A stretch of DNA of 26,748 nt from Chloroflexota bacterium (GCA_043797725.1 JAZDPM010000025.1:1-26748), one strand, 5' to 3'. Positions 8,480-26,748 are shown, counted from the first letter of the stretch. Numbers and translations: made by a program. Notes: generated by a model from the letters alone, not told the origin.

Positions 8480-8552
8480 GCGACGCTCCTCTCGTCCATC
8501 CGGCGCGGGGGCGCCGGAGGTCTCCGCGCCGGCGCCCGCCGGCACGTCTGGA

Positions 8553-9656: not shown

Positions 9657-9672
9657 GGCCGGACCTCCCTGC

Positions 9673-10128: not shown

Positions 10129-10439
10129 GGCGCCGTCGCGGCACGCGGCCGGCGACCGTTGGCGCGGGCGCCGAGCTTCGCCCATCGGACGGGCGCGTGC
10201 GGGCCCGCGAGGCCGGCGGACGACCGGTGCTCCGGGACGGACGCCACGGCCCGCCACTCCGAGCGCACGAGGGCGACGGGGCCCAGCTCCGGCCGCCGGA
10301 GCAGCGTGGGGCGGTCCGCGGCCGCGCGGAAACGGACGTGACGATCCAGGCCGAGGCGGGACCCGCGCGCCCGGGGCGGGACGGTCGCGAAGCGGGCGAC
10401 GGGACGGGCGGCATAGCGGGCCACGATGCTGCGCTGCAT
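10116..10439 (-). CDS. Hypothetical 107-aa Arg-rich protein, probably translated from a leaderless mRNA
   Basis: ATG lies 7 nt downstream of a TACGAT -10 box. Nearly all codons end in G/C, matching host usage. It fills the gap between the PanG-like and Nudix genes and overlaps the Nudix start by 13 nt. No family recognised. Confidence 0.6.
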   Translation of the reverse strand: MQRSIVARYAARPVARFATVPPRARGSRLGLDRHVRFRAAADRPTLLRRPELGPVALVRSEWRAVASVPEHRSSAGLAGPHAPVRWAKLGARANGRRPRAATAPWRG

Positions 10440-10445
10440 AGCCAG

Positions 10446-10474
10446 ATCGTACCGCGTTACCAGGACTTTGTGAA
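10446..10474 (-). promoter_or_regulatory. Putative sigma-70 promoter TTCACA-N17-TACGAT for the orf107-nudix-gcv operon
   Basis: Minus strand: TTCACA 10474-10469, 17-nt spacer, TACGAT 10451-10446. The predicted +1 at about 10439 is the A of the ATG. Confidence 0.6.
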
Positions 10475-11500
10475 CGCTGCGCGCAGCCGGGTCGCAGCTT
10501 CCGGTGCGAGGCCGCGCCGCCTCTCGGCGAGGGTCACCTGGCGGCGGCCGAGGGCGCGGTAGACGTCGACCGCCTCCTCCCCCGCCCCGGCGACCGCCGC
10601 GAGGTGGGCCTCGATCGTGCCGGCGTCGCCGCGGACGGCCGGTCCGGTCAGGGCAGGGCCCGTTCCCAGCGCTCGCGCGTTGGCCAGGGCCTGCGCGGCG
10701 AGCGGGCCGTAGACGGCGAGGGCGCCCGCCTCGTCAAGGCCCGTCGGCGCGGCGACGGCAGCCACGACGTCGAGGAGCGCCGTGAGGCCGCCGGCAGCGA
10801 GGACGGCGGCGGCGTGGTAAGCGGCCTTGGAGCCAGGTGCCAGGCGGACCGGTGCCGCGCCGAGCGAGGTCGCCATCTCCGCGAGAAGGTCGAGCAGCCC
10901 CTCGTCTCCCTCGATGGCCACGGTGGCCCCGGGGAGGGCGGCCAGGGCCCGGTCCAGGTCGGCGAAGGCCACGAGCGGATGGAAGGAGCCGGCGTTCGTG
11001 CCCGCCGCCAGCGCCGGCGCGAGGATGCCGGCGCCGTGGACGCCGCTCGTATGGACGATTGCCTGGCCCGAGTAGAGGTGCAGCGTTCGGGCGACCTCGG
11101 CGAGCCTGTCGTCCGGCACGGCGAGGATCACGAGATGGCACTCGTCGAGGATCGAGGCCGCCTCGGGGAACGCCCGCGACCCGGGCACCAGCGACCGGAA
11201 CCGGGCCCGGCGCCCCGGATCGCGGCTGGCGACCGCGCCGACCTGCCAGCCGGCGCGGCTGAGAGCGACGCCGAGGGCCGTCCCGACGGCGCCGGCGCCG
11301 ACGATCCCGATCACCGGCCGGCCGTCGTCGGCGGGCCCGACGTGCGGGTGGGCGTGCGCTTCCAGGTGGACCTCGTCCCCGTGGCGGTGGGCCCCCGGCG
11401 GCAGCGGCGCCGCGCCGGCGGCCGCGCGCCGCCGAACCTCCTCCATGGTCGCCGGGTCACCCGGGGGCGGCGTCGCCGGCTCCCTGCGCCAGGACCGCAT
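10457..11500 (-). CDS. Rossmann-like + DUF2520 domain oxidoreductase (PanG-like alternative ketopantoate reductase candidate)
   Basis: IGIVGAGAVGTAL dinucleotide-binding motif, LVILAVPDD, AIVHTSG, GSFHPL, YHAAAVLA, LTGPAVRGD. ATG 11500 is preceded by GGAGAG. PanG function is inferred from the domain family only. Confidence 0.8.
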   Translation of the reverse strand: MRSWRREPATPPPGDPATMEEVRRRAAAGAAPLPPGAHRHGDEVHLEAHAHPHVGPADDGRPVIGIVGAGAVGTALGVALSRAGWQVGAVASRDPGRRARFRSLVPGSRAFPEAASILDECHLVILAVPDDRLAEVARTLHLYSGQAIVHTSGVHGAGILAPALAAGTNAGSFHPLVAFADLDRALAALPGATVAIEGDEGLLDLLAEMATSLGAAPVRLAPGSKAAYHAAAVLAAGGLTALLDVVAAVAAPTGLDEAGALAVYGPLAAQALANARALGTGPALTGPAVRGDAGTIEAHLAAVAGAGEEAVDVYRALGRRQVTLAERRRGLAPEAATRLRAAFTKSW

Positions 11501-11584
11501 CGTTGCTCTCCACGCTACTCTTGGGCCCACAGCGTAGCGCTACAGGCGGCCCGCCCGCCGCCCCGAGCCAGCGAGGATCACCCT

Positions 11585-14254: not shown

Positions 14255-14274
14255 CCCGGGCGCCCCGGATGTTC

Positions 14275-14303
14275 CTGACGCGGGGGGCGTGGGCCGGTAC
14301 GAT
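14275..14303 (+). promoter_or_regulatory. Putative sigma-70 promoter CTGACG-N17-TACGAT
   Basis: CTGACG 14275-14280, 17-nt spacer, TACGAT 14298-14303. Same -10 hexamer as at 10446; places +1 near 14310, upstream of GTG 14352. Confidence 0.5.
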
Positions 14304-14351
14304 CCCTCGCGTCGCGTCACGACCCGGGCCCCCTTCTCGTCTTGCCGCTAC

Positions 14352-15287
14352 GTGAACACCCAGCCTCGTCCGCCCGTGCGCCACGGACCGCCCCGCCACC
14401 CCGCCACGGGGGGCGACGCCCTGTTCGCCCTCGGCGTCGCCGCGCTCGGCCTGGTCCTGGCCGGCGGCCTCCTCGCCGCCGGAGGCGGGTCATCGTTGCT
14501 GGACCGCATCCTGCCCGGCGGCAGCGCGACCGCCGGGCCGGTCCGGCCGAGCCCGAGCCCGAGTGCAGCCGCCGCGCCGGGGTCGCCGCGGTTCCCCGCC
14601 GTCACCCCGGTCGCCACGCCGCCGCCGTCACCGACCCCGGTGTCGACGAGCACCCCGACGCCGGCGCCGACCGGTCCCTTCACGATGAACCTCTACCGCG
14701 ACGGCGTCTTCGTCCACCAGGTCGACGACCAGACTTGCGTGGCCGCCGCGGCCCAGAACATGCTGAACGTCATCCGGTTGGTCGAGGAGGGCCAGGAGCC
14801 CGACTCGGGGACGGCCACGCAGCGGGCGCTCTACGACCGGATCGTCAAGCTGACCACGTGGGAGGACTCCCATAACGGCGGGACCGGGCCCGGCGGCTGG
14901 GCGGCCCTGCTCACCGAGGAGGGCTACCCGTACGAAGTCCGCGCGTACGAGTCCCGGCTGGCCGCGATGCGCGCTGCCGCTGCGGCGCTCCGGGCGACGA
15001 GCCGCCCGGTCGGCATCATTGCCTGGAAGGGGATCCATTCGTGGGTCATCACCGGCTTCAGAGCGACTGCCGACCCGGCCTTCACGATGCGCTTCGCCGT
15101 CACCGAGGCCTACGTCCTGGATCCGTGGTACCCGTGGATCTCGACGCGCTGGCCGCGCTCGGAGGCGCCGAACGAGCCCCGTGACGGGAAGGACCTCACG
15201 GCGAACATCCTGGCCTGGAACCTGCCCTCGGGCCCGTACGAGGGCCGGGACGGGATGTTCCTGCTGGTCGTGCCGGTCGACGGCTGA
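14352..15287 (+). CDS. Membrane-anchored papain-fold cysteine peptidase-like protein (C39-like), function unknown
   Basis: N-terminal TM (ALFALGVAALGLVLAGGLLAAG), Pro/Ser/Thr linker, then HQVDDQTCVAAAAQNML (Q..C), KGIHSWVITGF (His before a beta strand) and YVLDPW (Asp). This is the Cys-His-Asp order of C39-like enzymes. Confidence 0.65.
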   Translation: MNTQPRPPVRHGPPRHPATGGDALFALGVAALGLVLAGGLLAAGGGSSLLDRILPGGSATAGPVRPSPSPSAAAAPGSPRFPAVTPVATPPPSPTPVSTSTPTPAPTGPFTMNLYRDGVFVHQVDDQTCVAAAAQNMLNVIRLVEEGQEPDSGTATQRALYDRIVKLTTWEDSHNGGTGPGGWAALLTEEGYPYEVRAYESRLAAMRAAAAALRATSRPVGIIAWKGIHSWVITGFRATADPAFTMRFAVTEAYVLDPWYPWISTRWPRSEAPNEPRDGKDLTANILAWNLPSGPYEGRDGMFLLVVPVDG

Positions 15288-15320
15288 CGGTCCGGCCGCG
15301 CCGGTCGGGCAGCGTGGGCC

Positions 15321-15434
15321 TGTGACATGTGGCACCCTATCAGGGACCTCCGGTACTTGACCGAGGTCGGGGGTCATGGCGACGCTGGCCCCTGGTTGAC
15401 CCTCCGGTCCACGAGGCGAGGTGCAGGGTATGGT
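15321..15434 (+). promoter_or_regulatory. Upstream control region of the CODH/ACS operon with degenerate CRP/FNR-family-like palindromes and a TATGGT -10 candidate
   Basis: TGTGA-N6-GCACC (15321-15336), TTGAC-N4-GTCGG (15357-15370), TTGACC-N4-GGTCCA (15396-15411), TATGGT (15429-15434) with no good -35. All are imperfect matches. Confidence 0.3.
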
Positions 15435-15452
15435 CAGGCGCGGCGCCGGTCG

Positions 15453-16223
15453 ATGAAGATCGCGGTCTCGGGCAAGGGCGGGACGGGGAAGACCACGCTC
15501 GCCGCCCTCCTGGCCGTGGAGCTGCAGCGACGTGACTACCGGGTCACGGTCATCGACGCCGATCCCAACCCCACCCTGGCCGCGGCCCTCGGCTTTCCCC
15601 CGGCGCCGGTGACCCCGCTCCTCGAGATGAGCGAAGAGATCGAGGAGCGGATCGGCGGCAGCGGCGGCTTCATCCGCCTGAACCCCCGGGTCGACGACCT
15701 GGTGGGCCGCGTCGCCGCCACCCATGACGGCATCCACCTGATCGTGGCCGGGGGCATCACCCACGGCGGCGCGGGCTGCGCATGCCCGCAGAGCGTGCTC
15801 CTGCGCCGGGTCCTGGAGCATGTCGTGATGGAGCTCGACGAGGCCGTCATAATCGACCTCGAAGCCGGCCTCGAGCACCTCGGCCGGCGGAGCGCCCACG
15901 AGGTGGACGCGATGCTGGTGGTGGTCGATCCCAGCCGGGCCGGCATCGAGACCGCCCGGCGCGTCCGGCGCCTCGCGGCCGAGATCGGCGTGGACCGTGT
16001 GCTGGCGGTCGGGAACCGGGTTCGGGGACCGGCCGACGTGGAGTATCTCGCCACGCAGCTCGACGGGCTCGAACTCGTCGGCACCATCCCCTACAGCGAC
16101 GACGTGATCGCAGCAGAACGAGCCGGCCGACCGGTGACCAGGATCGAGGGCGAGCTGCCCGCGGCGGTCGCCCGGCTCACCGACGCCCTGGTAGTGATGA
16201 CGAAAGTGCAGGTTAGACCGTGA
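15453..16223 (+). CDS. cooC: CODH nickel-insertion ATPase CooC (CooC1)
   Basis: True start MKIAVSGKGGTGKTT (deviant Walker A), IDADPNP, metal-binding CxC in GAGCACP, IIDLEAGLEHLGR, VGNRVR. GTGA overlap with cooS. Confidence 0.93.
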   Translation: MKIAVSGKGGTGKTTLAALLAVELQRRDYRVTVIDADPNPTLAAALGFPPAPVTPLLEMSEEIEERIGGSGGFIRLNPRVDDLVGRVAATHDGIHLIVAGGITHGGAGCACPQSVLLRRVLEHVVMELDEAVIIDLEAGLEHLGRRSAHEVDAMLVVVDPSRAGIETARRVRRLAAEIGVDRVLAVGNRVRGPADVEYLATQLDGLELVGTIPYSDDVIAAERAGRPVTRIEGELPAAVARLTDALVVMTKVQVRP

Positions 16224-18154
16224 GTGAGACCGCAGCGCCCCCGTCCCGCACGGACCCCGCAAGCGTCGAGATGCGCGAGCGAGCCAGGGCCCAGGGCATC
16301 GCCACCATCTGGGATCGCTACGCCGCCCTGGGAACCCAGTGCAAGGTCGGCGAGCTGGGCATCTGCTGCACCGTCTGCCATCTCGGGCCGTGCAACCTCG
16401 GCCTGCCCGGGAGCAAGCGGCCCCAGATCGGCGTCTGCGGCGCGAACGTCGACACGGTCGCCTCCCGCCGCCTGGCGCGCGACATGGCGGCCGGGTCGGC
16501 GGCCCACTCGGACCACGGTCGGTCGGTGGCCCACCTTCTTCTCCAGGCCGCCCGGGGCGAGGCACCCGGGTACGGCGTGCGCGACGAGCGCAAGCTGCGC
16601 ACCCTGGCCGGCGAGCTCGGTATCCCGGTCAAGGACCGGAGCGTGGACCAGATCGCCGAGGGCGTCGCCGAGTCCTGCCTGGCCCAGTTCGGCCAGCAGG
16701 AGGGAGCCCTGGCGTTCGTCAGCCGGGCGCCGGCCAAGCAGCAGGAGAACTGGCGCAAGCTCGGCATCACCCCCCGCGGCGTCGACCGCGAGATCGTGGA
16801 GGTCATGCACCGGACCAACATGGGGGTCGACACCGAGTACCGCAGCCTGATCCTGTCCGGCATGCGCAGCGCCCTGGCCGACGGCTGGGGCGGCTCGATG
16901 GTCGCCACCGACCTCCAGGACGTCCTGTTCGGCACGCCCAAGCCGATCCGGGCCCAGATGAACCTGGGCGTCCTGCGCCAGGACCAGGTGAACATCCTCG
17001 TCCACGGGCACGAGCCCGCGCTGGCCGAGGCGATCGTCGATGCCGCCGCCGACCCCGCCCTCCTCGCCCAGGCGGCCGAGCTGGGCGCCACCGGGATCAA
17101 CGTCGCCGGCATCTGCTGCACCGCCAACGAGGTGCTGATGCGACGCGGCATCCCGATCGCCGGCAACTTCCTGCAGCAGGAGCTGGCCATCATCAGCGGC
17201 GCCGTCGAGGCGCTCCTGGTGGACGTCCAGTGCATCATGCCCGGGATCGTGCAGGTGGCCGGCTGCTTCCACACCGAGGTCATCGCGACGTCGACCCGCG
17301 CCCAGTTCCCGGGGACCATCCCGATGGAGGTCACGGAGGACCGGGCGCCGGAGGCGGCCCGGGAGATCGTCGGCCGGGCGGTCGCGAGCTTCGCCCGCCG
17401 CGACCCGTCACGGGTCATGATCCCGGACCACAAGATGGACGTGGTCGCGGGCTTCACCACCGAGTCGATCACCCACATGCTCGGCGGTACCTACCGGGGC
17501 GGCTACCGGCCGCTGAACGACGGGATCATCTCCGGCCGCATCCGCGGGGTCGTCGGCGTGGTCGGCTGCGACAGCCCCAAGCAGGTCCAGGACCAGGGGC
17601 ACCTGGACACCGTCTACGAGCTGCTCCGCAACGATGTGCTCGTGGCCCAGACCGGCTGCTCGGCCATCGCCTGCGGCAAGGCGGGCCTGCTCCGGCCCGA
17701 GGCCGCCTTCGAGCACGCCGGGCGCGGGCTCCAGGAGATCTGCGAGGCCGTCGGCATCCCGCCGGTCCTCCACGTGGGCTCGTGCGTCGACAACAGCCGG
17801 ATCCTGACCGTCGCGATGGAGATGGTCCGCGAGGGCGGCATCGGCCGCGACTTCTCCGAGCTGCCGATCGCCGCGGCGGCGCCCGGCTGGTGGTCGGAGA
17901 AGGCGATCACGATCGGGTTCTACGCGGTCGCCTCGGGCATCACCACGGTCCTCGGCTCACCGTTCAACATCCTCGGCAGCGAAGCCGTCACCCGCTTCGT
18001 GACCGACGAGATCGAGAGCCTGACCGGCGGCCGGTTCGCCTTCGAGACGGACCCGCTGAAGGCCGCCCAGCTGATCGTGGCGCATCTCGACCGAAAGCGG
18101 GAGGCGCTCAAGCTGCGACCCATGATGTACGACGCCCTGCCGGCGATCGCCTAG
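16220..18154 (+). CDS. cooS: Anaerobic Ni,Fe carbon monoxide dehydrogenase catalytic subunit (CooS/AcsA)
   Basis: D/B clusters CKVGELGICCTVCHLGPC...GVCGA; His tunnel AAHSDHG; C-cluster ligands HGHEP, GICCTANE, DVQC, VGCDS, TGCS, GSCVDNSR; catalytic Lys in SEKA. Confidence 0.97.
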   Translation: MSETAAPPSRTDPASVEMRERARAQGIATIWDRYAALGTQCKVGELGICCTVCHLGPCNLGLPGSKRPQIGVCGANVDTVASRRLARDMAAGSAAHSDHGRSVAHLLLQAARGEAPGYGVRDERKLRTLAGELGIPVKDRSVDQIAEGVAESCLAQFGQQEGALAFVSRAPAKQQENWRKLGITPRGVDREIVEVMHRTNMGVDTEYRSLILSGMRSALADGWGGSMVATDLQDVLFGTPKPIRAQMNLGVLRQDQVNILVHGHEPALAEAIVDAAADPALLAQAAELGATGINVAGICCTANEVLMRRGIPIAGNFLQQELAIISGAVEALLVDVQCIMPGIVQVAGCFHTEVIATSTRAQFPGTIPMEVTEDRAPEAAREIVGRAVASFARRDPSRVMIPDHKMDVVAGFTTESITHMLGGTYRGGYRPLNDGIISGRIRGVVGVVGCDSPKQVQDQGHLDTVYELLRNDVLVAQTGCSAIACGKAGLLRPEAAFEHAGRGLQEICEAVGIPPVLHVGSCVDNSRILTVAMEMVREGGIGRDFSELPIAAAAPGWWSEKAITIGFYAVASGITTVLGSPFNILGSEAVTRFVTDEIESLTGGRFAFETDPLKAAQLIVAHLDRKREALKLRPMMYDALPAIA

Positions 18155-18199
18155 ACACCGGCTGGAACGCGAACAGCCCGAGCGACGGAGCCAGAAACC

Positions 18200-20386
18200 A
18201 TGTCACGGATCATCGCTACTGCCGCCATCCGGGGCGCGCATACGTTCGTCGAGCAGGCCGAGACGGGACTGGCCGAGGCGATGGAATCGAAGGGCGGCGC
18301 GACCCGCTTGGAGTTCCCGAACACCGCCTTCTACCTGCCCCTCATCCTGGCCACGACGGGCATCGAGGTGAAGACCCTCGAGGACGCCCAAGCGCCGCTG
18401 CGCATCGCCCGGCGCCTGCTCCCGCCGGTCCCCACCGACCGGCTGTGGCTCCCCTACCTTGGCGACGCCCTCGACGCCGGGGTCGCCGCCCTCATCGCCG
18501 AAGAGATCATCGAGGCGCTGCGCTACGCCAACGGCGGGCCGCCCAACGGGATCTACCTCGGGTTCACCGACGACGCCATCTTGCGGACCCAGGGCATCAA
18601 GCTCGTCGACGGGAGGATGCCCGGGTTCGCCGCCTGCGTGGGTGCCCTTCCGACCAACGAGGCCGCGGTCAAGCTCGCCCGGGAGCTCCAGGAGCGCAAC
18701 ATCCTCGTCTTCCTCTCCAGCCAGACCGACGGCCGGAGCATGGCCGAGCAGCTGGCCGAGGAAGGCGTGGAGATGAGCTGGGACACGTACCTCGTGCCCT
18801 ACGGCAAGGAGACGAGCTCCACCGTCTACGCCCTCAACTTCGCGGCCCGGGCCGCGATGACCTTCGGCGGCCTCGTCCCCGGCGACCTGGCCAAGGCGCG
18901 CAAGATCCTCATGTACAACAAGGAGCGGGTCTTCGCCTTCGTGCTCGCCCTCGGCGAGGTCGACGACCAGAAGTACGCGACCGCGGCCGGTGCCATCAAC
19001 TTCGGCTTCCCGGTCGTGGCCGACACGGACATCCCCGAGATCCTGCCCAGCGGCATCTGCACCTCCGAGCACGTCGTCGCCAACACGCCCCACGACCGGA
19101 TGGTGGCCCGGGCGGTCGAGGTGCGCGGCCTCAAGCTCAAGATCACCAAGATCCCGATCCCCGTCTCCTACAGCGCCGCCTTCGAGGGCGAGCGCGTTCG
19201 CAAGGAGCAGCTCCAGATAGAGTTCGGGCGGGGTGGCTTCCCGGCCCTCGAGTACCTCCGCAGCCGCGAGCTGAACGAGATCGAGGACGGGCACATCGAG
19301 CTGGTCGGACCGGACCTCGACACGGCCGAGGTGGGCGGATCGATGCCCCTGGGCATCCTCATCGAGGTCGCCGGGCGCAAGTTCCAGAAGGACTTCGAGC
19401 CGATCCTCGAGCGCCAGGTGCACCGCTTCATCAACGGGGCGATGGGCGTGATGCACATCGGTCAGCGCGACCAGCCCTGGATCCGGGTCAGCCAGGACGC
19501 CTTCAAGGCGGGCCTCCGGCTGCGCGACTTCGGGGTGATCCTGCACGCCAAGTACCTGGAGGAGTACCCCGCCCTCGTCGACAAGGTGGCAGTGACCCTG
19601 ATCTCGGACGCCGAGGCGCTCGGGCCGATCCTCAGCGAGGCCCGCGTGGTCTGGGACGAGCGCGACGCCCGGGTGGCCGGCATGACCGACGAGACGGTCG
19701 ACATCTACTACTCCTGCACGCTCTGCCAGTCGTACGCCCCGAACCACGTCTGCGTCATCTCGCCCGAGCGGCTCGGCCTGTGCGGCGCGTACAACTGGCT
19801 GGACGGCAAGGTCAGCCACGAGATCAACCCGGTCGGGCCGAACCAGCCGATCGAGAAGGGAGCCTGCCTCGACGCCTCGCTGGGCATGTACGACGGCATC
19901 AACCAGTTCGTCAGCAGCAAGTCCAACAAGACCGTCGACCAGGTCAGCCTCTACTCGATGCTCATGGCCCCGATGACCTCGTGCGGCTGCTTCGAGTGCA
20001 TCCTGGGGATCGTCCCCGAGGTCAACGGGGTGATCGTCGTCGACCGCGAGTACGCCGGCATGACGCCGCTGGGCATGTCGTTCAGCACCCTCGCCGGCAT
20101 GGTCGGGGGCGGCATCCAGACGCCGGGCTTCCTGGGCGTCGGCCGGCTCTACCTGACCAGCCGCAAGTTCATCCCGGCCGACGGCGGCCTGCAGCGCCTG
20201 GTGTGGATGCCGCAGTACCTCAAGGAGGCCCTCCGCGAGCGCCTGAAGGCCCGGGCCATCGAGATCGGGGACGAAGGGTTCGTGGACAAGATCGCCGACG
20301 AGACGGTGGCCACCACGATCGACGAGCTGACGGCCTACCTCGAGCGGGTGGGGCACCCGGCCCTGACCCTGCCGTCGCTGCTCTAG
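18200..20386 (+). CDS. acsB: Acetyl-CoA synthase (CO-methylating), bacterial type with N-terminal CODH-docking domain
   Basis: MSRIIATAAIRGA, EFPNTAFYLP, LGDALDAG, A-cluster YYSCTLCQSYAPNHVCVISPERLGLCG and PMTSCGCFEC, GMSFSTLAGMVGGGIQTPGF, RLVWMP; 728 aa. Confidence 0.98.
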   Translation: MSRIIATAAIRGAHTFVEQAETGLAEAMESKGGATRLEFPNTAFYLPLILATTGIEVKTLEDAQAPLRIARRLLPPVPTDRLWLPYLGDALDAGVAALIAEEIIEALRYANGGPPNGIYLGFTDDAILRTQGIKLVDGRMPGFAACVGALPTNEAAVKLARELQERNILVFLSSQTDGRSMAEQLAEEGVEMSWDTYLVPYGKETSSTVYALNFAARAAMTFGGLVPGDLAKARKILMYNKERVFAFVLALGEVDDQKYATAAGAINFGFPVVADTDIPEILPSGICTSEHVVANTPHDRMVARAVEVRGLKLKITKIPIPVSYSAAFEGERVRKEQLQIEFGRGGFPALEYLRSRELNEIEDGHIELVGPDLDTAEVGGSMPLGILIEVAGRKFQKDFEPILERQVHRFINGAMGVMHIGQRDQPWIRVSQDAFKAGLRLRDFGVILHAKYLEEYPALVDKVAVTLISDAEALGPILSEARVVWDERDARVAGMTDETVDIYYSCTLCQSYAPNHVCVISPERLGLCGAYNWLDGKVSHEINPVGPNQPIEKGACLDASLGMYDGINQFVSSKSNKTVDQVSLYSMLMAPMTSCGCFECILGIVPEVNGVIVVDREYAGMTPLGMSFSTLAGMVGGGIQTPGFLGVGRLYLTSRKFIPADGGLQRLVWMPQYLKEALRERLKARAIEIGDEGFVDKIADETVATTIDELTAYLERVGHPALTLPSLL

Positions 20387-20442
20387 CGGAACAGGCGCCG
20401 ATCCGGAGCGGACCGGCTGGAGAACACCGGAGGCGAGTGCAC

Positions 20443-21801
20443 ATGCCGTTGACCGCGCTGGACATCTACAAGGTGCTGCCGAAGACCAACTGTGGCGAGT
20501 GCGGAGTCCCGACCTGCCTGGCCTTCGCCATGCAGCTGGCCACCAAGAAGGCGGCCATCGACGCCTGTCCGTACGCGACGGACGACGCCAAGGCGACGCT
20601 CGCCGGGGCGGCCGCCCCACCGATCAGGCTCGTCAGCATCGGCCCCGAAGCCCAGTGCATCGTGATGGGCAACGAGACGGTCCTGTTCCGCCACGAGGAG
20701 ACCTTCCATCACCCGACCGCGATCGCGGTGCGGATCCGGACCGACCGCAGCCCGGAGGAGCTGAAGGCGGAGTTCGAGCGCGTCAAGGCCATGGTCTACG
20801 ACCGGGTCGGGCAGTTCGTCCGGGTGGAGATGGTCGCGCTCGAGGACGCCGATGGTGATCCCGGGCGCTTCGCCGCGGCGGCCGCCCTGGCCGACGAGAT
20901 GGGCCTCGCGCTCATGCTCATGAGCGATGTGCCGGCGGTGCTGGAGGCGGCCCTGGCCGGAATCTCCACCCATCGCCCGCTCCTCTACGCCGCCACGGCC
21001 GACACCTGGGAGGCGATGGCGGCGCTGGCCAAGGCCGGCGCCTGCCCGTTGGTCGTCCGGGGCACGGACCTGAAAGAGCTGGCCGACCTCACCCGGCGGA
21101 TTGCCGCGCTCGGCGTCACCGACCTGGTCCTCGACAGCGGAGCGCGGGGCCTCCAGGCCACCCTCGCGGACCTGACCCAGATCCGGCGCCTGGCGCTCCG
21201 TCGCCAGTTCCGGCCGCTGGGGTATCCGGCGCTGGCGTTCGTCACGGCCCAGGATCCCCTCGACCGGGTCACCGAGGGGACCGCCTACCTCTGCAAGTAC
21301 GCCGGCCTCGTGGTGACCGACGGGCTCGAGGACTGGCAGGCGCTGGCCATGGTCACGGCCCGCCAGAACATCTACACCGACCCGCAGAAGCCCATCCAGG
21401 TCGAGCCCGGCGTTCGCGCCGTCGGCAGCCCCGACGCCTCCTCCCCGGTCCTCGTCACGACCAACTTCTCGCTCACCTACTTCACGGTCGAGGCGGACGT
21501 CGAGGCCACCCACTCGCCGGCCTGGATCCTGATCGTGGACACCGAGGGACAGTCGGTCCTGACCGCCTGGGCGGCCGACAAGTTCACCGCCGAGACGATC
21601 GCCAAGGCGCTCGCCGAGTCGGACCTCGCCGAGCGGGTCGACCACCGGCGGGCGGTGATCCCCGGCGGCGTGGCCACGATCAGCGGCAAGCTCGAGGAGC
21701 TGAGCGGCTGGGAGATCCTGGTCGGGCCGCGCGAGTCGGCCGGCATGACCGCTTTCATGCGGACCCGCTGGCGCAAGCCCGAGGCCGCCGCGACGAGCTG
21801 A
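20443..21801 (+). CDS. acsC: Corrinoid iron-sulfur protein large subunit (CFeSP gamma)
   Basis: C-terminal 452 aa of the 1820-aa ORF-track entry; ATG 20443 after GGAGG. MPLTALDIYKVLPKTNCGECGVPTCLAFA...CPY ([4Fe-4S]), ETVLFRHEETF, RQNIYTDPQKP, VTTNFSLTYFTV, SVLTAWAADKF, VGPRES. Confidence 0.97.
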   Translation: MPLTALDIYKVLPKTNCGECGVPTCLAFAMQLATKKAAIDACPYATDDAKATLAGAAAPPIRLVSIGPEAQCIVMGNETVLFRHEETFHHPTAIAVRIRTDRSPEELKAEFERVKAMVYDRVGQFVRVEMVALEDADGDPGRFAAAAALADEMGLALMLMSDVPAVLEAALAGISTHRPLLYAATADTWEAMAALAKAGACPLVVRGTDLKELADLTRRIAALGVTDLVLDSGARGLQATLADLTQIRRLALRRQFRPLGYPALAFVTAQDPLDRVTEGTAYLCKYAGLVVTDGLEDWQALAMVTARQNIYTDPQKPIQVEPGVRAVGSPDASSPVLVTTNFSLTYFTVEADVEATHSPAWILIVDTEGQSVLTAWAADKFTAETIAKALAESDLAERVDHRRAVIPGGVATISGKLEELSGWEILVGPRESAGMTAFMRTRWRKPEAAATS

Positions 21802-21811
21802 AGGACGGCCG

Positions 21812-23728
21812 GTGACCGAATCCCGCATCACCTTCATCCCCGACGACCGCAGCGCAGTCGTCGGGGCCGGGGAGTCGCTGCTCGACGCGGCGATCGCCGC
21901 CGGCGTCCCGCTGGCCGGCGTCTGCGGCGGCCGGGCCATCTGCGAGCGCTGCTGGGTCGTGGTCACGGAAGGCGAGGTGGTCGCCCCACCGGCGGCCCGC
22001 GCCGCCGGTGGACGCGAGGTCCTCGCCTGCATGGCCCGGGCGGTCGGCGACGTGACGCTGCACGTGCCGGAGGCCTCGCGCATCGAGGGCGAGGAGATCC
22101 TCACCGGCCTCGAGCGCCCCGGCGAGCTGCCCGCTGCCGAGGACCGGGTCGCCCTCGGGCTGCCGCGGGCGGCAGAGCTGTTCGTCCCCAGCCCGCTCGC
22201 CTTCGCCGTTCCGCTCGAGCTTCCCCAGCCCACCCTCAACGACCCGGTCAGCGACCTCGGGCGCCTGGAGCGCGAGCTGCAGCGCCGGCGCAACGTCCGG
22301 AACCTCGCGGTCCCGCTGCACGTCCTGCGCGCGGCGCCCGGGGTGCTCCGGGGGGCCGGCTGGGCGGTGACCGCGGTGATCGCACGCTCGGCCGGAGGCT
22401 ACGAGCTGCTCGACCTCCGCCCGGGGACGGACGCCACCCGGACCTTCGGGCTGGCGGTGGACATCGGGACGACGACGGTCGTCGTCCACCTCGTGGACCT
22501 CGGGAGCGGAGCCACCCTGGGCGCGGCCGCGGCGCTCAACCGCCAGGTCGCCTACGGCGACGACGTGATCAGCCGGATCATCCGTGCCGCCGAGCCCGAC
22601 GGCCTGGAGCAGCTGCGGCAGGCGGTGGTCGGCGAGCTAAACGTCCTGGTCGGCAGGCTGGCCGAGACCCACGACGTGCGCGGCGACGAGATCGTCACGG
22701 CCGTGGTCGCCGGGAACACGACGATGGTCCACCTGTTCCTCGGCCTGCCGCCGGCCGAGATCCGGCGCGAGCCGTACGTCCCGGTGACCACCCTGCCGCC
22801 GGTCCAGCACGCCGATGAGCTGGGCCTGCGGATCCACCCGGGCGCGACGGTCACGGCGATGCCCGGCGTCGCCAGCTACGTCGGGGGCGACATCGTCGCC
22901 GACGTGCTCGCCGCCGGGATGGACACGACAACCGAGCTGTCGATGCTGATCGACGCCGGGACGAACGGCGAGACGGTCATCGGCAACCGGGACTTCCTGA
23001 TCTGCTGTGCCTGCTCGGCGGGTCCGGCCTTCGAGGGCGGCGGCATCTCGTCGGGAATGCGCGCCGCCCGGGGCGCGGTCCAGCGGGTCGAGGTGACCGA
23101 GGACGGGGGGCTGGCCTGCGCGACGATCGGCGGGACCCCGCCGCGGGGCATCTGCGGCTCCGGCCTCGTCGACCTGATGGCGGCCATGCTCCGGGCCGGG
23201 TGGATCGACCGGTCGGCCCGCCTCCGCGCCGACGCGCCGTTCGTCCGCACGGCCCCGGCCGGGCTCGAGATCGTGGTCGTGCCGGCGGCGGCGACGGCGA
23301 CCGGGCGGGACATCACCGTCACGAACGCGGACCTCGAGAATCTCCTGCGCTCCAAGGCGGCCGTCTACGCCGGTGCCGCGCTCCTCGCCCGGCGCCTGGG
23401 GGTCGAGATGGCCGACCTCCGGCGGGTCTTCGTGGCCGGCGGCTTCGGCACCTCTCTCGACATCGGCAACGCGATCCAGATCGGGCTCCTGCCCGACGTG
23501 CCGGTCGAGCGGGTTACCTTCATCGGCAACGGATCCGTGACCGGCGCCAAGATGGCCCTGCTCTCCTACGAGGCGCTGCGCCGGGCGGGCGACGTGGCCG
23601 CCCGGATGACCTACCGTGAGCTGAGCGTCGACGAGGCCTTCATGGATGAGTACGTCTCGGCCATGTTCCTCCCCCACACCGACTGCAGCCGGTTCCCGCG
23701 AGCCTGTGCCGCGCTCGGGGTCGCCTGA
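21812..23728 (+). CDS. acsV: ATP-dependent reductive activator of corrinoid proteins (RACo/AcsV; 2Fe-2S + ASKHA/DUF4445)
   Basis: N-terminal [2Fe-2S] CGGRAICERC...LAC; AVDIGTTTVV, YGDDVISRI, SYVGGDI, DAGTNGE, CSAGPAFEG, GICGSG, AGGFG, FIGNGS. Confidence 0.93.
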   Translation: MTESRITFIPDDRSAVVGAGESLLDAAIAAGVPLAGVCGGRAICERCWVVVTEGEVVAPPAARAAGGREVLACMARAVGDVTLHVPEASRIEGEEILTGLERPGELPAAEDRVALGLPRAAELFVPSPLAFAVPLELPQPTLNDPVSDLGRLERELQRRRNVRNLAVPLHVLRAAPGVLRGAGWAVTAVIARSAGGYELLDLRPGTDATRTFGLAVDIGTTTVVVHLVDLGSGATLGAAAALNRQVAYGDDVISRIIRAAEPDGLEQLRQAVVGELNVLVGRLAETHDVRGDEIVTAVVAGNTTMVHLFLGLPPAEIRREPYVPVTTLPPVQHADELGLRIHPGATVTAMPGVASYVGGDIVADVLAAGMDTTTELSMLIDAGTNGETVIGNRDFLICCACSAGPAFEGGGISSGMRAARGAVQRVEVTEDGGLACATIGGTPPRGICGSGLVDLMAAMLRAGWIDRSARLRADAPFVRTAPAGLEIVVVPAAATATGRDITVTNADLENLLRSKAAVYAGAALLARRLGVEMADLRRVFVAGGFGTSLDIGNAIQIGLLPDVPVERVTFIGNGSVTGAKMALLSYEALRRAGDVAARMTYRELSVDEAFMDEYVSAMFLPHTDCSRFPRACAALGVA

Positions 23729-23737
23729 GGCACCGCC

Positions 23738-24502
23738 ATGGCCGAAGTGATCGCGCTCGCCGGCAAGGGCGGCACCGGGAAGACGACCGTCGCGGGGCTG
23801 GTCGTCCGTTCGCTCCGCCGGGCGACCCGGACGCCGATCCTGGCGGTCGACGCGGACCCCAATTCCTGCCTTGACGCAGCCCTCGGGCTGCACCCGGCAC
23901 GGACGATCTCGGACGTCCTCCATGACAGCCACGGCCTGCGCGGCGTCCCCGAGACGATGCCCAAGTCGACCTACCTGGAGTACGAGCTCCAGGCATGCCT
24001 GGCCGAGGGCCGGGGCATTGACCTCATCGAGATGGGCCGCCCCGAGGGACCGGCCTGCTACTGCTCGGCTAACCATCTCCTGCGGAGCTACATGGACCGG
24101 CTGATGGGCGCGTACCGCACGGTCGTGGTCGACAACGAAGCCGGCATGGAGCACCTCAGCCGCCGGACCACCCGCGACGTGGATCTCCTCCTCATCGTCA
24201 GCGACGCCTCCCAGGTCGGGATCCGGTCGGCTCAGCGGATCAGGGCGCTCGTCGCCGAGCTCGCCCTCCCGGTGCGCCGGATGGCCCTCGTGGTCAACCG
24301 GGCCAGCGGGCTCCCGCCGGCGGTCGAGACGGCGATCGCGGCCGACGGGCTCGAGCTCGCCGGGCTCGTGCCCGACGACCCGTGGATCCCGGAGTTCGAG
24401 CTCGCCGGGCGCCCCCTGCTAGAGCTCCCCGATGACGCGCCCGCGGTCGGGGCGGTGGAGCGGATGCTGGCGGCGCTCGGCGCCGCGGGAGGGCAGGCGT
24501 GA
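23738..24502 (+). CDS. cooC2: Second CooC-family nickel-insertion ATPase (CooC2/AcsF, likely for ACS)
   Basis: IALAGKGGTGKTT, AVDADPNS, MGRPEGPACYC (CxC), DNEAGMEHLSRRTT. Position among the ACS/CFeSP genes matches AcsF/CooC2. Confidence 0.9.
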   Translation: MAEVIALAGKGGTGKTTVAGLVVRSLRRATRTPILAVDADPNSCLDAALGLHPARTISDVLHDSHGLRGVPETMPKSTYLEYELQACLAEGRGIDLIEMGRPEGPACYCSANHLLRSYMDRLMGAYRTVVVDNEAGMEHLSRRTTRDVDLLLIVSDASQVGIRSAQRIRALVAELALPVRRMALVVNRASGLPPAVETAIAADGLELAGLVPDDPWIPEFELAGRPLLELPDDAPAVGAVERMLAALGAAGGQA

Positions 24503-25125
24503 GCACGTACAAGGTGGCCTACGATGCGCTCCGCGCCCGGCTGGCCGGCCACGACCTCGCCGGCCTCGTCGAGCGCAGCGGGGCGCGCGCGCTCGGGCCG
24601 GACCGGATCGGGCTGCGCTGCCTCGGCCTGGAGTACGTCATCACGTATCCCGACGGCCTGGTTCTCGAGGCCGACGGTCAGCCGGCGCCCGAGCACGACG
24701 CGATCCTGCTTCTCCTCTACCTCACCGAGTCGACCGGGCGGGACCTTGACGGGCGATGGGTCGCCTTCGAGCAGCTCTCGGGCGGTGCCGGTTACTCCGC
24801 CTCCTTCCGGGGCCGAGTCATGGCGCCGCTCGTGCATGCCTTCGGGTCGCGCCCGAACGCGCTCCTGGAGGCGGCGGCAAGCCTCGACGGGGAGCCGCTC
24901 GAGCTCGGGGACGCGTCGGTTCGTCTCCCCGCGCTGCCCCGCGTGCCCCTCGCGTACGTGGTCTGGGGCGGGGACGAGGAGTTCCCGCCAAGCGCCAACG
25001 TCGTGTTCGACGCCTCGGTCGAGGGGTATCTCGACGCCGAGGCCGTCACCGTCCTGGCCGAGCTCGCCACCCGTCGGCTGGCCGGGGCAGCCAATCTTCC
25101 AAGGGGCAAAGGAGAGGTCACGTGA
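24499..25125 (+). CDS. DUF3786-family protein
   Basis: ILLLLYL, WVAFEQLSGGAGY...F..R, LPALPRVPLAYVVWGGDEEFPPSANVVFDAS, AVTVLAE: the pattern I recognise for DUF3786. GTGA overlaps at both ends. Confidence 0.75.
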   Translation: MSTYKVAYDALRARLAGHDLAGLVERSGARALGPDRIGLRCLGLEYVITYPDGLVLEADGQPAPEHDAILLLLYLTESTGRDLDGRWVAFEQLSGGAGYSASFRGRVMAPLVHAFGSRPNALLEAAASLDGEPLELGDASVRLPALPRVPLAYVVWGGDEEFPPSANVVFDASVEGYLDAEAVTVLAELATRRLAGAANLPRGKGEVT

Positions 25126-26108
25126 CGGTTGAGTTGATGCGCGAAACCTGGCCCGGGAAGATCCTGACGGTCACGATCGGGGCGACATCCGCCGAGGGCG
25201 GGACGCGGGGTTCGACGGTCACCGTCGGCGGCCACGGGGCGCTGCCGTTCATGACCGGCGACGCCCCGAGCCCGCATCGGCCCGTCGTCGCCCTCGAGGT
25301 GCTCGACATGGTGCCGGACGACTGGCCGGAGCACCTGCGGGCGCCGCTGGCCGACGTCCTGGATTCGCCCGCCGCCTGGGCCCGCAAGGGGGTCGAGGAG
25401 CTTGGCGCCGACCTCATCTGCCTGCGCCTCTTCTCGCCGCACCCGGACTGGCGGGGCACGACTCCGGACGAGGCCGCCCGGACGGTCCGGTCCGTGCTCG
25501 ACGCGGTCTCCGTGCCCCTGATGATCCTGGGCTGCGGTGATCCCGACGTCGACAACGACCTCTGGCCAAGGGTCACCCACGAGGCCCGGGGCGAGCGCTG
25601 CCTGATGGGCGTCGCCGTCCCCGGGAACTACAAGACTCTCGTGGTGGCCTGCCTGGCCGACGGGCACGCGCTCCTGGCCGAGGCCCCGATCGACGTCAAC
25701 ATCCAGAAGCAGCTCTCGATCCTGGTCAGCGACATGGGCCTGCCGCCCGACCGGATCGTGCTCCATCCGGGGACGGCCTCGCTGGGCTACGGCCTGGAAT
25801 ACGAGTACTCGATCATGGAGCGGATCCGCCTGGCCGGGCTCCAGGGCGACCGGATGCTCTCCCAGCCGGTGGCGGCCATCGTGGGCGAGGACAGCTGGAA
25901 GGCGAAGGAGGCGCGGCTTCCCGAGGCGGACATGCCGGCCTGGGGATCGGCGGCCCGCCGCGGCCCGGCCTGGGAAGCGGCCACGGCCGCGGCCTACCTG
26001 CAGGCGGGAACGGACATCGTCGTGCTGCTCCACCCGGAGGCGGTCGGGGCGGTCAAGCGTACGATCAGCGAGCTGACAGCGCGCCCGGCCGGCGCGGCGG
26101 AGGGATAG
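25122..26108 (+). CDS. acsD: Corrinoid iron-sulfur protein small subunit (CFeSP delta)
   Basis: GTG 25122 after GGAGAGG. ETWPGKILTVTIGAT..GGTR..TVTVGG..ALPF, PVVALEVLD, GADLICLRL, PIDVNIQKQL, LGYGLEYEYSIMERIRLAGLQGDRML, WKAKEA, GTDIVVLLHP. Confidence 0.96.
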   Translation: MTVELMRETWPGKILTVTIGATSAEGGTRGSTVTVGGHGALPFMTGDAPSPHRPVVALEVLDMVPDDWPEHLRAPLADVLDSPAAWARKGVEELGADLICLRLFSPHPDWRGTTPDEAARTVRSVLDAVSVPLMILGCGDPDVDNDLWPRVTHEARGERCLMGVAVPGNYKTLVVACLADGHALLAEAPIDVNIQKQLSILVSDMGLPPDRIVLHPGTASLGYGLEYEYSIMERIRLAGLQGDRMLSQPVAAIVGEDSWKAKEARLPEADMPAWGSAARRGPAWEAATAAAYLQAGTDIVVLLHPEAVGAVKRTISELTARPAGAAEG

Positions 26109-26110
26109 CC

Positions 26111-26748
26111 ATGTTCATCATCGGCGAACGAATCAACGGGATGTTCCGCTCGGTCGCGCGGGCGATCGCCGAGCGCGACGAGGCCGCCATCGCCGACCTT
26201 GCCCGGCGCCAGGTGGAGGCCGGCGCCCACGCCCTGGACGTCAACACCGGGCCCACCGAGGGCGACCCCGTCGAGGTGATGCGCTGGCTGGTCGAAGCCA
26301 TCCAGGCCGCCGTGGACGTTCCGCTCGCGATCGACAGCCCGAAGCCCCCCGTGGTCGAGGCCGGGCTCCGTGCTGCCCGTCGCCCGGCCATCATCAACTC
26401 GACGACCGGGGCCCAGGCGAAGCTGGACACGATGCTGCCGCTGGCGGCAACCTACAACGCGAGCCTCATCGGCCTCACGATCGACGAGCGCGGGATTCCC
26501 CGGAACGCCGAGGCCCGCGCGGAGATCGCCCTGACGATCGTGGCCCGGGCCCTGGAGGCGGGCATCGAGCCCGATCGGCTCTACCTGGACCCCATCGTGC
26601 TGCCGGTGAGCGCGGCCCAGGACCAGTGCGCGGCCGCGCTCAAGGCGATTCCGGCCTTCCGGTCGCTGTGCGACCCGTCGCCGCGAATCGCGATCGGCCT
26701 GAGCAACGTGTCCCAGGGAACGGCCAACCGGAGCCTGGTCAACCGGAC
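26111..26748 (+). CDS. acsE: Methyltetrahydrofolate:corrinoid/iron-sulfur protein methyltransferase (partial, runs off the right edge)
   Basis: Not in the ORF track; translated by hand: MFIIGERINGMF...RRQVEAGAHALDVNTGP...PLAIDSP...AIINSTTG...LIGLTIDERGIP...LYLDPIVLPV...IGLSNVSQG...RSLVNR (pterin-binding TIM barrel). Starts 2 nt after the acsD stop. Confidence 0.95.
   Translation, partial: MFIIGERINGMFRSVARAIAERDEAAIADLARRQVEAGAHALDVNTGPTEGDPVEVMRWLVEAIQAAVDVPLAIDSPKPPVVEAGLRAARRPAIINSTTGAQAKLDTMLPLAATYNASLIGLTIDERGIPRNAEARAEIALTIVARALEAGIEPDRLYLDPIVLPVSAAQDQCAAALKAIPAFRSLCDPSPRIAIGLSNVSQGTANRSLVNR

Follow-up and report, generated by a model that had tools for sequence, protein, structure and literature searches.

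The window (the whole 26,748-nucleotide stretch of DNA that was analysed) ends in a CODH/ACS gene cassette that we conclude is real, was gained horizontally by a groundwater member of the Limnocylindrales, and would be used under anoxia, mostly in the reductive direction. We place the probability of this explanation as a whole at roughly 0.8. The novelty lies in the host; CODH/ACS itself is well known, and the CSP1-3 group provides a published precedent. The locus is laid out as follows:

11600..14254 (start approximate), + strand: aconitase gene of the conserved host flank (Pfam Aconitase and Aconitase_C), the last gene ahead of the variable locus
14289..15287, + strand: hypY, a fast-evolving protein of 332 aa without a Pfam family
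15288..15452, + strand: left junction, with a conserved non-coding 5' region carried along with the cassette, a candidate promoter, operator or leader
15453..16223, + strand: cooC1, predicted Ni-insertion ATPase for CODH (Pfam CbiA/ParA P-loop; N-terminus MKIAVSGKGGTGKT; CxC at residue 109)
16220..18154, + strand: cooS/acsA, predicted Ni,Fe CO dehydrogenase (Pfam Prismane/CODH, 510 bits)
18200..20386, + strand: acsB, predicted acetyl-CoA synthase, the A-cluster subunit (Pfam CODH_A_N, CdhC and ACS_CODH_B_C)
20443..21801, + strand: acsC, corrinoid iron-sulfur protein large subunit (Pfam FeS and CdhD; N-terminal CX2CX4CX16C)
21812..23728, + strand: acsV/RACo, predicted reductive activator of the corrinoid protein (Pfam Fer2, RACo_linker, Raco_middle and RACo_C_ter; N-terminal 2Fe-2S cysteines)
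23738..24502, + strand: cooC2, predicted acsF-type maturation ATPase (Pfam CbiA; P-loop; CxC at residue 107)
24499..25125, + strand: DUF3786 protein (Pfam DUF3786, 160 bits)
25122..26108, + strand: acsD, corrinoid iron-sulfur protein small subunit (Pfam CdhD)
26111..26748, + strand: acsE, predicted methyl-THF:corrinoid methyltransferase (Pfam Pterin_bind, profile positions 15-210 of 244), truncated at the contig end

All nine ORFs from cooC1 onwards belong to the expected Pfam families and are free of internal stops. A preliminary description of this DNA had claimed nine co-oriented genes with three GTGA overlaps (cooC1/cooS, cooC2/DUF3786 and DUF3786/acsD) and gaps of 2-56 nt, and the coordinates, start and stop codons and spacing all agree with it (cooS-acsB 45, acsB-acsC 56, acsC-acsV 10, acsV-cooC2 9 and acsD-acsE 2 nt). 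Its further claim that the ligands of the CODH B, C and D clusters, the ACS A-cluster, the CFeSP 4Fe-4S cluster and the RACo 2Fe-2S cluster are present, with no frameshift, was borne out by motifs and alignments. CooS, aligned to solved CODHs, has the C-X7-CC-X2-C-X4-C of the D and B clusters and the His/Cys positions of the C-cluster, and AcsB, aligned to Carboxydothermus ACS (residues 10-728; 682 bits), has the A-cluster ligands CxxC...C...C and CGC. Both subunits of the corrinoid Fe-S protein, AcsC and AcsD, are encoded, together with AcsE and a four-domain RACo. The operon had also been called complete and intact; it is intact as far as the contig end, but acsE (reading frame 26111-26746, + strand) breaks off after 212 of about 261 residues. 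The AcsE orthologue in related contigs is full length at 261 aa, and complete in orthologous cassettes. A contig assembled from the likely source run reaches about 420 nt beyond the window end, and relatives carry a tenth gene 3' of acsE, for a MaoC-like hotdog protein of 155-160 aa. The DUF3786 gene keeps its position in every related cassette (G220, G036, G114, L077, G185 and the contigs labelled Armatimonadota). Judged on its sequence, the gene set qualifies as a bacterial CODH/ACS cluster, the carbonyl branch of the Wood-Ljungdahl pathway, real and intact as far as the contig reaches.

Against congeners without the operon, synteny stops at 15288-15308. Homology to the cassette of the sister species G220 begins at 15291 and homology to the genus-g2 cassettes covers 15317-15441, with conserved blocks visible in the alignment of the 5' region. 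Such a break might reflect a contig chimera or mis-binning, in which the operon of another organism (e.g. CSP1-3-like) was fused to Limnocylindrales DNA at about 15.3 kb; it is at exactly this point that congener synteny is lost, the closest non-Chloroflexota AcsB proteins come from high-GC MAGs of similar composition, and the bin is fragmented (332 contigs, 68% complete). The suspected misassembly was looked for and not found, however, the junction being bridged by contigs of three metagenomes. In an independent assembly of the likely source run, a Logan contig covers 12433-16500 with flat depth (6.6-6.8 versus 7.5-8.5), and contigs of two runs from unrelated studies, one of soil and one of sediment, cross the hypY-cooC1 junction (15099-15480 and 15145-15466) at 99% identity, with five and three differences, respectively. 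G220 has the operon at 94% nt identity adjoining the same DUF2520-aconitase flank, its aconitase (90.5% aa identical) directly preceding the cassette, and in same-family genomes the operon is embedded in contigs of 1.3-2.7 Mb. Tetranucleotide composition gave no outlier signal. The operon is truly located in a Limnocylindrales-type genome, and we regard a chimera as extremely improbable.

The sequence evidence supports a host that is an uncultured groundwater Chloroflexota bacterium of the order Limnocylindrales. Positions 1-15300 of the window are syntenic with all 30 congeners compared, at 77-92% nt identity (82-92% in the aconitase region). No 16S gene was found in the source bin (332 contigs, 68% complete), and the name 'Limnocylindrales' is taken from the NCBI labels of proteins that match exactly or nearly so: the AcsB encoded by G833, a genome of the same family, matches HSG86795.1 ('Candidatus Limnocylindrales bacterium') at 100% identity, and the 90% cluster containing the G185 AcsB includes two proteins with that label. 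The synteny over 15.3 kb and the G833 match thus uphold the initial guess of a high-GC Chloroflexota of the Limnocylindria kind, and the GC content (72% for the window, 73% for the genome) agrees with the very high-GC host proposed. Placement in a lineage where the Wood-Ljungdahl pathway is well documented was also checked, with a negative outcome.

The operon is a rare add-on, present in about 2% of related species, and a lineage-wide trait is rejected. It was found in 2 of 42 genomes of the genus (the source genome, G000, and G220) and in 7 of 400 other family genomes, from three of the sampled genera, and was absent from the second family of the order (0/42 genomes) and from the other four families of the class (0/263 sampled genomes). 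The phylum sample held 55 ACS-positive genomes, 54 of them outside the host's own family. The searchable literature contained no report of CODH/ACS in this class, and one survey describes the Chloroflexi supergroup outside Dehalococcoidia as lacking the full Wood-Ljungdahl pathway, so that the description of the system as under-documented here stands.

We conclude, from comparison of sequences, that the host acquired a cassette of about ten genes horizontally, at a variable locus (aconitase - hypY - tRNA-Val), because the operon is rare, its fourfold-site identity exceeds that of its flanks, and its AcsB nests among Armatimonadota-labelled sequences. Between the host genus (g1) and genus g2, the operon aligns as a single colinear block at 87.4-87.8% nt identity, with flanks at 72-77%. 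At fourfold sites the operon shows 70.6-71.2% identity and the housekeeping flanks 46.9-47.6%, close to the 44% expected at saturation; even within g1, flanks reach only 58-68%. In the AcsB tree, the genus-g2 sequences nest within the G000/G220 group. These values indicate that the operon crossed between genera of the family after those genera had separated. The Limnocylindrales AcsB clade (43 cluster representatives; node value 98) itself nests in a clade (node value 100) with sequences labelled Armatimonadota and 'Symbiobacterium', both being submitters' labels. Contigs of the former label share 80-81% AcsB identity and the same nine-gene order, and the AcsB is closest to sequences from MAGs with these two NCBI labels, the Armatimonadota-labelled ones being possibly CSP1-3/Sysuimicrobiota. 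AcsB proteins of other Chloroflexota are 46-59% identical and lie in other clades, so the Limnocylindrales cassette is not the copy inherited vertically in the phylum.

The genomic context of the cassette differs in each carrier genome. Operon-free close relatives show an empty site with clean boundaries at aconitase-hypY-tRNA-Val; hypY lies there between aconitase and tRNA-Val(CAC), at 56-75% aa identity, and precedes the cassette in G000 but comes after it in G220. The tRNA-Val(CAC) gene adjoins the locus in G220 and in the congeners without the operon. The right end of the cassette is missing from the G000 contig, and boundary data come from G220, at whose cassette ends no integrase, att repeats (judged by inspection) or other transfer machinery were found. 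An operon ancestral to Limnocylindrales or Limnocylindria, inherited vertically, lost in about 98% of species and kept similar by purifying selection and codon bias, would account for the single clade of Limnocylindrales-type AcsB and for the comparison with genus g6 (G185), where divergence is near saturation (fourfold-site identity 54% versus 47% for flanks); CODH/ACS proteins do evolve slowly. It would, however, require dozens of independent losses, and it sits poorly with an operon more similar between genera than flanks are within one, with the g2 sequences inside the g1 group, with insertion contexts that differ even between G000 and G220, and with a clade placed among sequences labelled as other phyla and remote from other Chloroflexota AcsB. 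We consider vertical descent improbable. The preliminary description had proposed an acetogenic, carboxydotrophic or acetate-oxidising lineage, a reading contradicted by the low frequency of the operon (about 2% of family genomes; 2 of 42 in the genus). That reading is opposed, too, by an operon younger than the genus split, grouping with MAG sequences labelled as other phyla, and by hosts that mostly have a haem-copper oxidase; together with rarity, these features argue for an accessory module that facultative organisms acquired horizontally.

The pathway context was compared in five carriers (G000, G220, G036, G114 and G185). All five have an fhs-folD pair (contig C60 in G000) and MTHFR (contig C320 in G000; a MetF-MetV fusion directly after acsE in G185), and fhs occurs in 99 of 100 family genomes, a tally that includes G839. 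A selenocysteine formate dehydrogenase, Sec-FdhA, was found in G220 and G036, and no FdhA above the family cut-off in G000 (bin 68% complete). NiFe hydrogenases and PFOR are present in all ten genomes tested. The carriers do not match classical acetogens: Rnf was found in none of the five, haem-copper oxidase subunit I (COX1) in all but G000 (68% complete), and acetate kinase in G000, G220 and G185 but not in G036 or G114. Near-identical contigs in a groundwater metatranscriptome cover cooC1 and acsB, in an RNA library that may include carried-over DNA.

By family biochemistry, CooS would reduce CO2 to CO, or oxidize CO, AcsE would methylate the corrinoid protein AcsCD from methyl-THF, with RACo keeping that protein active, and AcsB would join methyl, CO and CoA into acetyl-CoA, with CooC1 and CooC2 probably inserting nickel. 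Since the host family has fhs-folD, MTHFR and, in relatives, Sec-formate dehydrogenase, hydrogenases and PFOR, the cassette would complete the Wood-Ljungdahl pathway in one step. The host is thus pictured as a facultative anaerobe that gained the full pathway and would use it only under anoxia, most likely reductively, for CO2/CO assimilation and as an electron sink, with acetate kinase probably yielding ATP in G000.

Two other uses of the same cassette were weighed. The CODH/ACS reaction is reversible, and the cassette might be mainly oxidative or CO-consuming, cleaving acetyl-CoA (acetate oxidation with an anaerobic acceptor or a syntrophic partner) or oxidizing CO for energy. The respiratory chains of the hosts, the missing acetate kinase of G036 and G114, the lack of Rnf in the five carriers, and a CooS that scores 664 bits against the solved structures 6vwy/6b6v, which we take to be the stand-alone CODH of Desulfovibrio vulgaris, versus 475 bits against the ACS-bound CODHs of Moorella and Carboxydothermus, are consistent with such a role. 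Yet neither a CooF/Ech hydrogenase module nor electron-acceptor genes are linked to the cassette, and the full methyl-transfer set, AcsCDE and RACo, would be superfluous for simple CO oxidation. The closest published analogue, the CSP1-3 family Humicultoraceae, expressed these genes in chemoautotrophic enrichments, its phylum appearing in heavy 13C-bicarbonate DNA fractions (PMC11604079). We judge an oxidative role unlikely, though a serious contender. The same can be said of a cassette devoted to methyl-group metabolism, in which methyl-THF would derive from methylamines, glycine betaine or methoxylated aromatics via corrinoid methyltransferases and ACS would join the methyl group with CO from CO2. 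RACo-like and pterin-binding methyltransferase paralogues occur elsewhere than in the operon in many members of the genus (matches to query 7197-8316 and 10948-11086), and substrate:corrinoid methyltransferase genes are reported to be common in Ca. Limnocylindria MAGs (PMC11264602); however, no substrate-specific methyltransferases are linked to the cassette, and such systems are also widespread in non-carriers and therefore work without ACS. We prefer the mostly reductive use.

More tentatively, at somewhat less than even odds, a compact ten-gene cassette of some 12 kb, with its own regulatory region, may circulate among oxygen-respiring subsurface and soil Terrabacteria, including several Limnocylindrales genera, MAGs labelled Armatimonadota/CSP1-3 and a Symbiobacterium-like MAG. 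CODH/ACS is usually regarded as an ancient complex, mostly vertically inherited; contrary to that view, it would then be a recently and repeatedly mobile accessory trait. The folate methyl branch and the glycine cleavage system are already in place in the recipients, so that a single acquisition would give a heterotroph, or a bacterium relying on the reductive glycine pathway, the whole Wood-Ljungdahl pathway.

Among characterized enzymes, those of Moorella thermoacetica (1MJG/1OAO), Carboxydothermus hydrogenoformans (7ZKJ) and Clostridium autoethanogenum (6YTT) share the domain architecture and metal-cluster ligands, the structure chains scoring 660-682 bits for AcsB and 475-599 bits for CooS. 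CooS is closer by score to 6vwy/6b6v (664 bits) and to the CODH/ACS-type CODH chain 6ytt_B (599 bits), its best solved relatives, than to the Moorella type. AcsB has Tyr at the position of Moorella Phe512, as do 65 of 65 matched clade members and 51 of 51 in the next clade. Dehalococcoidia and other Chloroflexota, in which ACS is common, share phylum and enzyme family with the Limnocylindrales, and differ from them at the level of AcsB identity given above. In uncultured Actinomycetota, MAGs and SAGs reportedly revealed CODH/ACS in high-GC Terrabacteria traditionally seen as aerobic heterotrophs (ISME J 2021, ref. 33 of PMC11604079; Front Microbiol 2020, PMC7325909), a parallel in another phylum that is drawn by description rather than by sequence. 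The Armatimonadota-labelled contigs with the same nine-gene order may belong to the CSP1-3 group; there the cluster continues into folC, a metV-like gene (DUF5981) and fhs, whereas the G220, G036 and G114 cassettes end after the MaoC-like gene, with fhs-folD elsewhere. In CSP1-3/Sysuimicrobiota, CODH/ACS is found in one shallow branch, the Humicultoraceae, and was judged to be horizontally acquired; the methyl branch and glycine cleavage occur throughout that phylum (Natl Sci Rev 2024; PMC11604079). Expression and 13C-labelling evidence comes from the CSP1-3 case; the two hosts are alike as high-GC, uncultured, facultatively anaerobic Terrabacteria of subsurface, soil or hot-spring habitats.

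The nine plus-strand open reading frames between 15.45 kb and the contig end were all assigned by Pfam to the families expected of them, and the window is laid out as follows.

1 to 15.3 kb: Opp transporter, ECF sigma factor, gcvPB-PA-H-T (5234-9656), DUF2520 gene, aconitase and hypY (14289-15287, 332 aa, no Pfam family)
15291-15452: non-coding stretch (~160 nt) preceding cooC1
15453-26748, plus strand: cooC1, cooS, acsB, acsC, acsV (RACo), cooC2, DUF3786 gene, acsD and acsE

None of the nine operon frames has an internal stop. The preliminary description was exact as to coordinates, GTGA overlaps (three), gaps (2-56 nt) and the lack of frameshifts. The CODH B-, C- and D-cluster, ACS A-cluster, CFeSP and RACo ligands that it claimed were all located in the window proteins: the D/B-cluster motif C-X7-CC-X2-C-X4-C and the C-cluster His/Cys positions in CooS, the A-cluster motifs CxxC...C...C and CGC in AcsB, CX2CX4CX16C in AcsC and the 2Fe-2S cysteines in RACo. 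Both CooC proteins carry CxC. Its view of the operon as complete and intact holds for the nine genes and their ligands, but not for the 3' end, since acsE is cut by the contig end at residue 212 and a tenth gene, for a MaoC-like hotdog protein, lies 3' of acsE in orthologous cassettes. The AcsB segment C-T-L-C-Q-S-Y-A-P (19715-19741) places Tyr at the position of Moorella Phe512. The same residue is found in 65/65 motif-matched members of the 77-100% identity clade and in 51/51 of the next clade (≤66% identity, Bipolaricaulota type); Tyr is a branch-wide state, not peculiar to the window AcsB. As a system, the window operon is bacterial CODH/ACS of the canonical kind.

The left 15.3 kb is syntenic with 30 of the 30 congeners searched (77-92% nucleotide identity), and homology to operon-free genomes ends at 15288-15308, a pattern that would be produced either by insertion of the cassette or by a chimeric assembly. 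Four results decide the question in favour of insertion. A 4,068-nt Logan contig from the best-matching run, a groundwater metagenome that is probably the source, spans 12433-16500, with even depth across the junction (6.6-6.8 versus 7.5-8.5). Contigs bridging hypY and cooC1 are also present in soil and sediment runs of other studies (15099-15480 with 5 differences; 15145-15466 with 3 differences). In G220, a separate MAG of a second species of the genus, the operon is 94% identical at the nucleotide level and its contig opens with the DUF2520 and aconitase genes (92%), whilst in three genomes of the same family the operon lies inside contigs of 1.3-2.7 Mb. The junction near 15.3 kb, where a misassembly had been considered, therefore held up.

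The bin, G000, is a MAG of 1.75 Mb in 332 contigs, 67.6% complete and 1.9% contaminated, with 73% GC; the window makes up the whole of its contig C33 (26,748 bp), and the tetranucleotide composition of the window fits the bin. Positions 1-141 are identical to one end of another contig of the bin, C88, in reverse orientation; this is an assembly-graph overlap, and C88 probably adjoins the left end. For the right end, no bin contig overlaps the last 31-141 bases. The minus-strand open reading frame at 9653-10414 gave no Pfam match when read as one, and is probably two genes; close relatives have a 107-aa gene and a 151-aa NUDIX hydrolase at the same place.

The genus order at the insertion locus is aconitase, hypY, tRNA-Val(CAC), the tRNA gene lying just past hypY (17433-17509 in L081, the G220 contig; 2139-2215 in L116; 2137-2213 in L114). 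The cassette is found between aconitase and hypY in G220 and after hypY in G000. Gene content from aconitase to the tRNA varies among congeners; in some, an ABC-ATPase gene separates aconitase from hypY. A 117-nt piece upstream of the G220 cassette is a Walker-A remnant of this native ABC-ATPase gene and not donor DNA. No integrase or mobile-element signatures were found at the cassette ends, and no flanking repeats were seen on inspection by eye. The non-coding stretch 5' of cooC1 is conserved from one Limnocylindrales cassette to the next and moves with the cassette. Its blocks ATGAC-N3/4-TGGCAC and CTCCGGTxCTTGACCG..TCGGGGGTCAT..GACGCTGG are present in five Limnocylindrales cassettes and absent from those labelled Armatimonadota. 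The conserved upstream motif TGTGACA..TGGCAC showed no convincing fit to the consensus of CRP/FNR, Rex or sigma-54 and is left unassigned.

The bin contains no 16S rRNA gene, so that placement by rRNA was impossible. Among GcvT homologues, the labels are 'Chloroflexota bacterium' or 'Chloroflexi bacterium' apart from two odd ones, and a protein atlas returned generic taxa only. The preliminary guess of a high-GC, Limnocylindria-type host is nevertheless supported by the AcsB labels of genomes from the same GTDB family: over 728 residues, AcsB of G833 shows 100% identity to NCBI HSG86795.1, labelled 'Candidatus Limnocylindrales bacterium', and that of G185 falls into a 90% cluster together with two further proteins under this name. 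Genome size (2.4-3.9 Mb) and GC are likewise in line with what has been published on Ca. Limnocylindria (PMC10608941). The host class comprises five families in the genome sample surveyed, and ACS was scored across it.

Distribution of ACS in the host lineage (marker PF03598 at each taxonomic level; whole-operon DNA search at genus level)
Genus: 2/42 genomes (G000, G220)
Family: 7/400 other genomes, in three genera of the sample (3/31, 2/31, 2/2)
Second family of the order: 0/42
Other four families of the class: 0/263
Phylum: 55/400 others, 54 of these from outside the host's own family

The positives in the phylum sample concentrate in families whose genomes are small and closed and in which ACS is fixed. 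The suggestion that the operon marks an acetogenic or carboxydotrophic lineage is not supported by the counts for genus, family and the class's other four families: the CODH/ACS cassette is a rare mobile accessory, not a lineage trait. One ACS-free congener, G074, has a cooS-like gene (66-68% nucleotide identity) with a cooC-like neighbour (G074:C78:87-907; G074:C216:7213-8033), possibly a stand-alone Ni-CODH.

A search of 5.8 billion proteins placed the window AcsB in a tight clade of ~65 cluster representatives (77-94% identity), followed by a gap, the next relatives being at most 66% identical (Bipolaricaulota, Aerophobetes, Acidobacteriota). In AcsB trees, all sequences traceable to Limnocylindrales/Chloroflexota form one clade (SH-aLRT 98) nested in a fully supported clade, the deeper branches of which are NCBI-labelled Armatimonadota and a 'Symbiobacterium thermophilum' MAG. 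Another 25 Chloroflexota AcsB sequences are 46-59% identical and fall in other clades. The AcsB sequences of a second genus, g2 (G036 and G114), nest inside the G000/G220 group, and the G000 operon aligns with those of g2 in a single colinear alignment at 87.4-87.8% nucleotide identity, with the glycine-cleavage/aconitase flank at 72-77%.

Identity to G000 at fourfold degenerate sites, the clearest signal obtained
Genus g2 (G036, G114): operon 70.6-71.2%, flank 46.9-47.6%, saturation ~44%
Operon-free congeners of genus g1: flank 58-68%, saturation ~47%
Sister species G220: operon 86.7%, flank 80.4%, saturation ~47%
Genus g6 (G185): operon 54%, flank 47%, saturation 42-44%

From these values, the similarity of the g1 and g2 operons is concluded to postdate the radiation of genus g1 itself, and G220 is consistent with co-inheritance from a common ancestor in the recent past. 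The operon of G185 is, on the same measure, an older cassette variant; the first cooC there is in divergent orientation, with an identity of only 44%, and directly 3' of its acsE lies a gene for a 587-aa fusion of MTHFR with an MTHFR_C/DUF5981 (MetV-like) domain (7891-9654 on its contig L119, equivalent to G185:C3:607890-609653). The cassette neighbourhood differs in each carrier. The comparison shows that a small minority of Limnocylindrales species carry an intact CODH/ACS, that these species gained it by transfer, and that movement of the cassette between genera was recent enough for synonymous sites to stay unsaturated.

Soils, aquifers and lakes harbour abundant Limnocylindria, which are regarded as aerobic heterotrophs; few known enzyme systems are as complex or as sensitive to oxygen as CODH/ACS. 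The genomic background of the carriers is listed below.

Pathway background of the carriers
Adjacent fhs-folD pair: 5/5 carriers
fhs: 99/100 family genomes (98/99 without the unpublished G839)
MTHFR: 5/5 carriers
Selenocysteine FdhA: G220 and G036; not found in G000 (incomplete bin)
NiFe hydrogenases and PFOR: 10/10 genomes tested, carriers and non-carriers
Acetate kinase: G000, G220 and G185; not G036 or G114
Haem-copper oxidase subunit I: 4/5 carriers
Rnf: 0/5 carriers

The formate dehydrogenase alpha genes have one in-frame TGA each (G220:C15:7620-9638; G036:C1:2529959-2531977; G185:C3:570868-572745), implying selenocysteine use in the host family. Across ACS-free members of the genus, RACo-like and pterin-binding methyltransferase paralogues with 64-70% nucleotide identity to acsV and acsE are common (for example G208:C8:173429-176759, G217:C321 and G203:C1:1246680-1249476), which suggests other corrinoid methyltransferase systems.

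From the family assignments, CooS would interconvert CO2 and CO, AcsE would pass the methyl group of methyl-THF to the corrinoid protein AcsCD, RACo would re-reduce inactive Co(II), AcsB would assemble acetyl-CoA reversibly and the CooC proteins would load nickel. Given the host background (fhs-folD, MTHFR, FdhA, hydrogenases, PFOR and oxidase), the cassette would complete the Wood-Ljungdahl pathway in hosts with folate C1 metabolism already in operation and the ability to respire oxygen. We infer that its use is facultative, under anoxia. Reductive use, that is, CO2/CO assimilation with re-oxidation of ferredoxin, is most likely; use in the oxidative direction and use driven by methyl groups are both credible alternatives. 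A groundwater metatranscriptome contains short contigs nearly identical to parts of cooC1 and acsB, a hint of transcription of these genes but no proof. A 'C1 hub', coupling the glycine cleavage operon to CODH/ACS by adjacency, was rejected as a conserved feature: the two are close only in the G000/G220 lineage, being ~0.5 Mb apart in G036, ~1.4 Mb apart in G185 and on different contigs in G114, and all operon-free congeners have the gcv flank too.

The cassette provides a clean natural example of recent whole-operon mobility, in hosts that also respire oxygen, and particular groundwater, soil and sediment populations are now open to a direct test of anoxic CO2/CO fixation by 'heterotrophic' Chloroflexota. 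No report linking Limnocylindria or Limnocylindrales with CODH/ACS was found in the literature searched, the sole co-occurrence being with corrinoid methyltransferases; the annotated NCBI proteins under 'Candidatus Limnocylindrales bacterium' indicate that such genes have been deposited but not discussed. A 2021 survey of the Chloroflexi supergroup described the full Wood-Ljungdahl pathway as lacking outside Dehalococcoidia (bioRxiv 10.1101/2021.08.23.457424).

The contigs labelled Armatimonadota have a nine-gene order identical to that of the window cassette and, beyond it, folC, a metV-like gene (DUF5981) and fhs, with a MaoC-like gene between acsE and folC in one of them (L112). These relatives, whose Armatimonadota-labelled assemblies include GCA_031459175.1, may belong to the CSP1-3/Sysuimicrobiota group, whose CODH/ACS is the closest published parallel; there it is confined to the family Humicultoraceae, was judged to be horizontally acquired in facultative anaerobes, and the autotrophy of the family is supported by expression and 13C-SIP data (PMC11604079). 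With Limnocylindrales, a kind of system that is already known gains a new host; since there is published precedent in CSP1-3 and Actinomycetota, the cassette extends a known pattern rather than representing a new kind of system.
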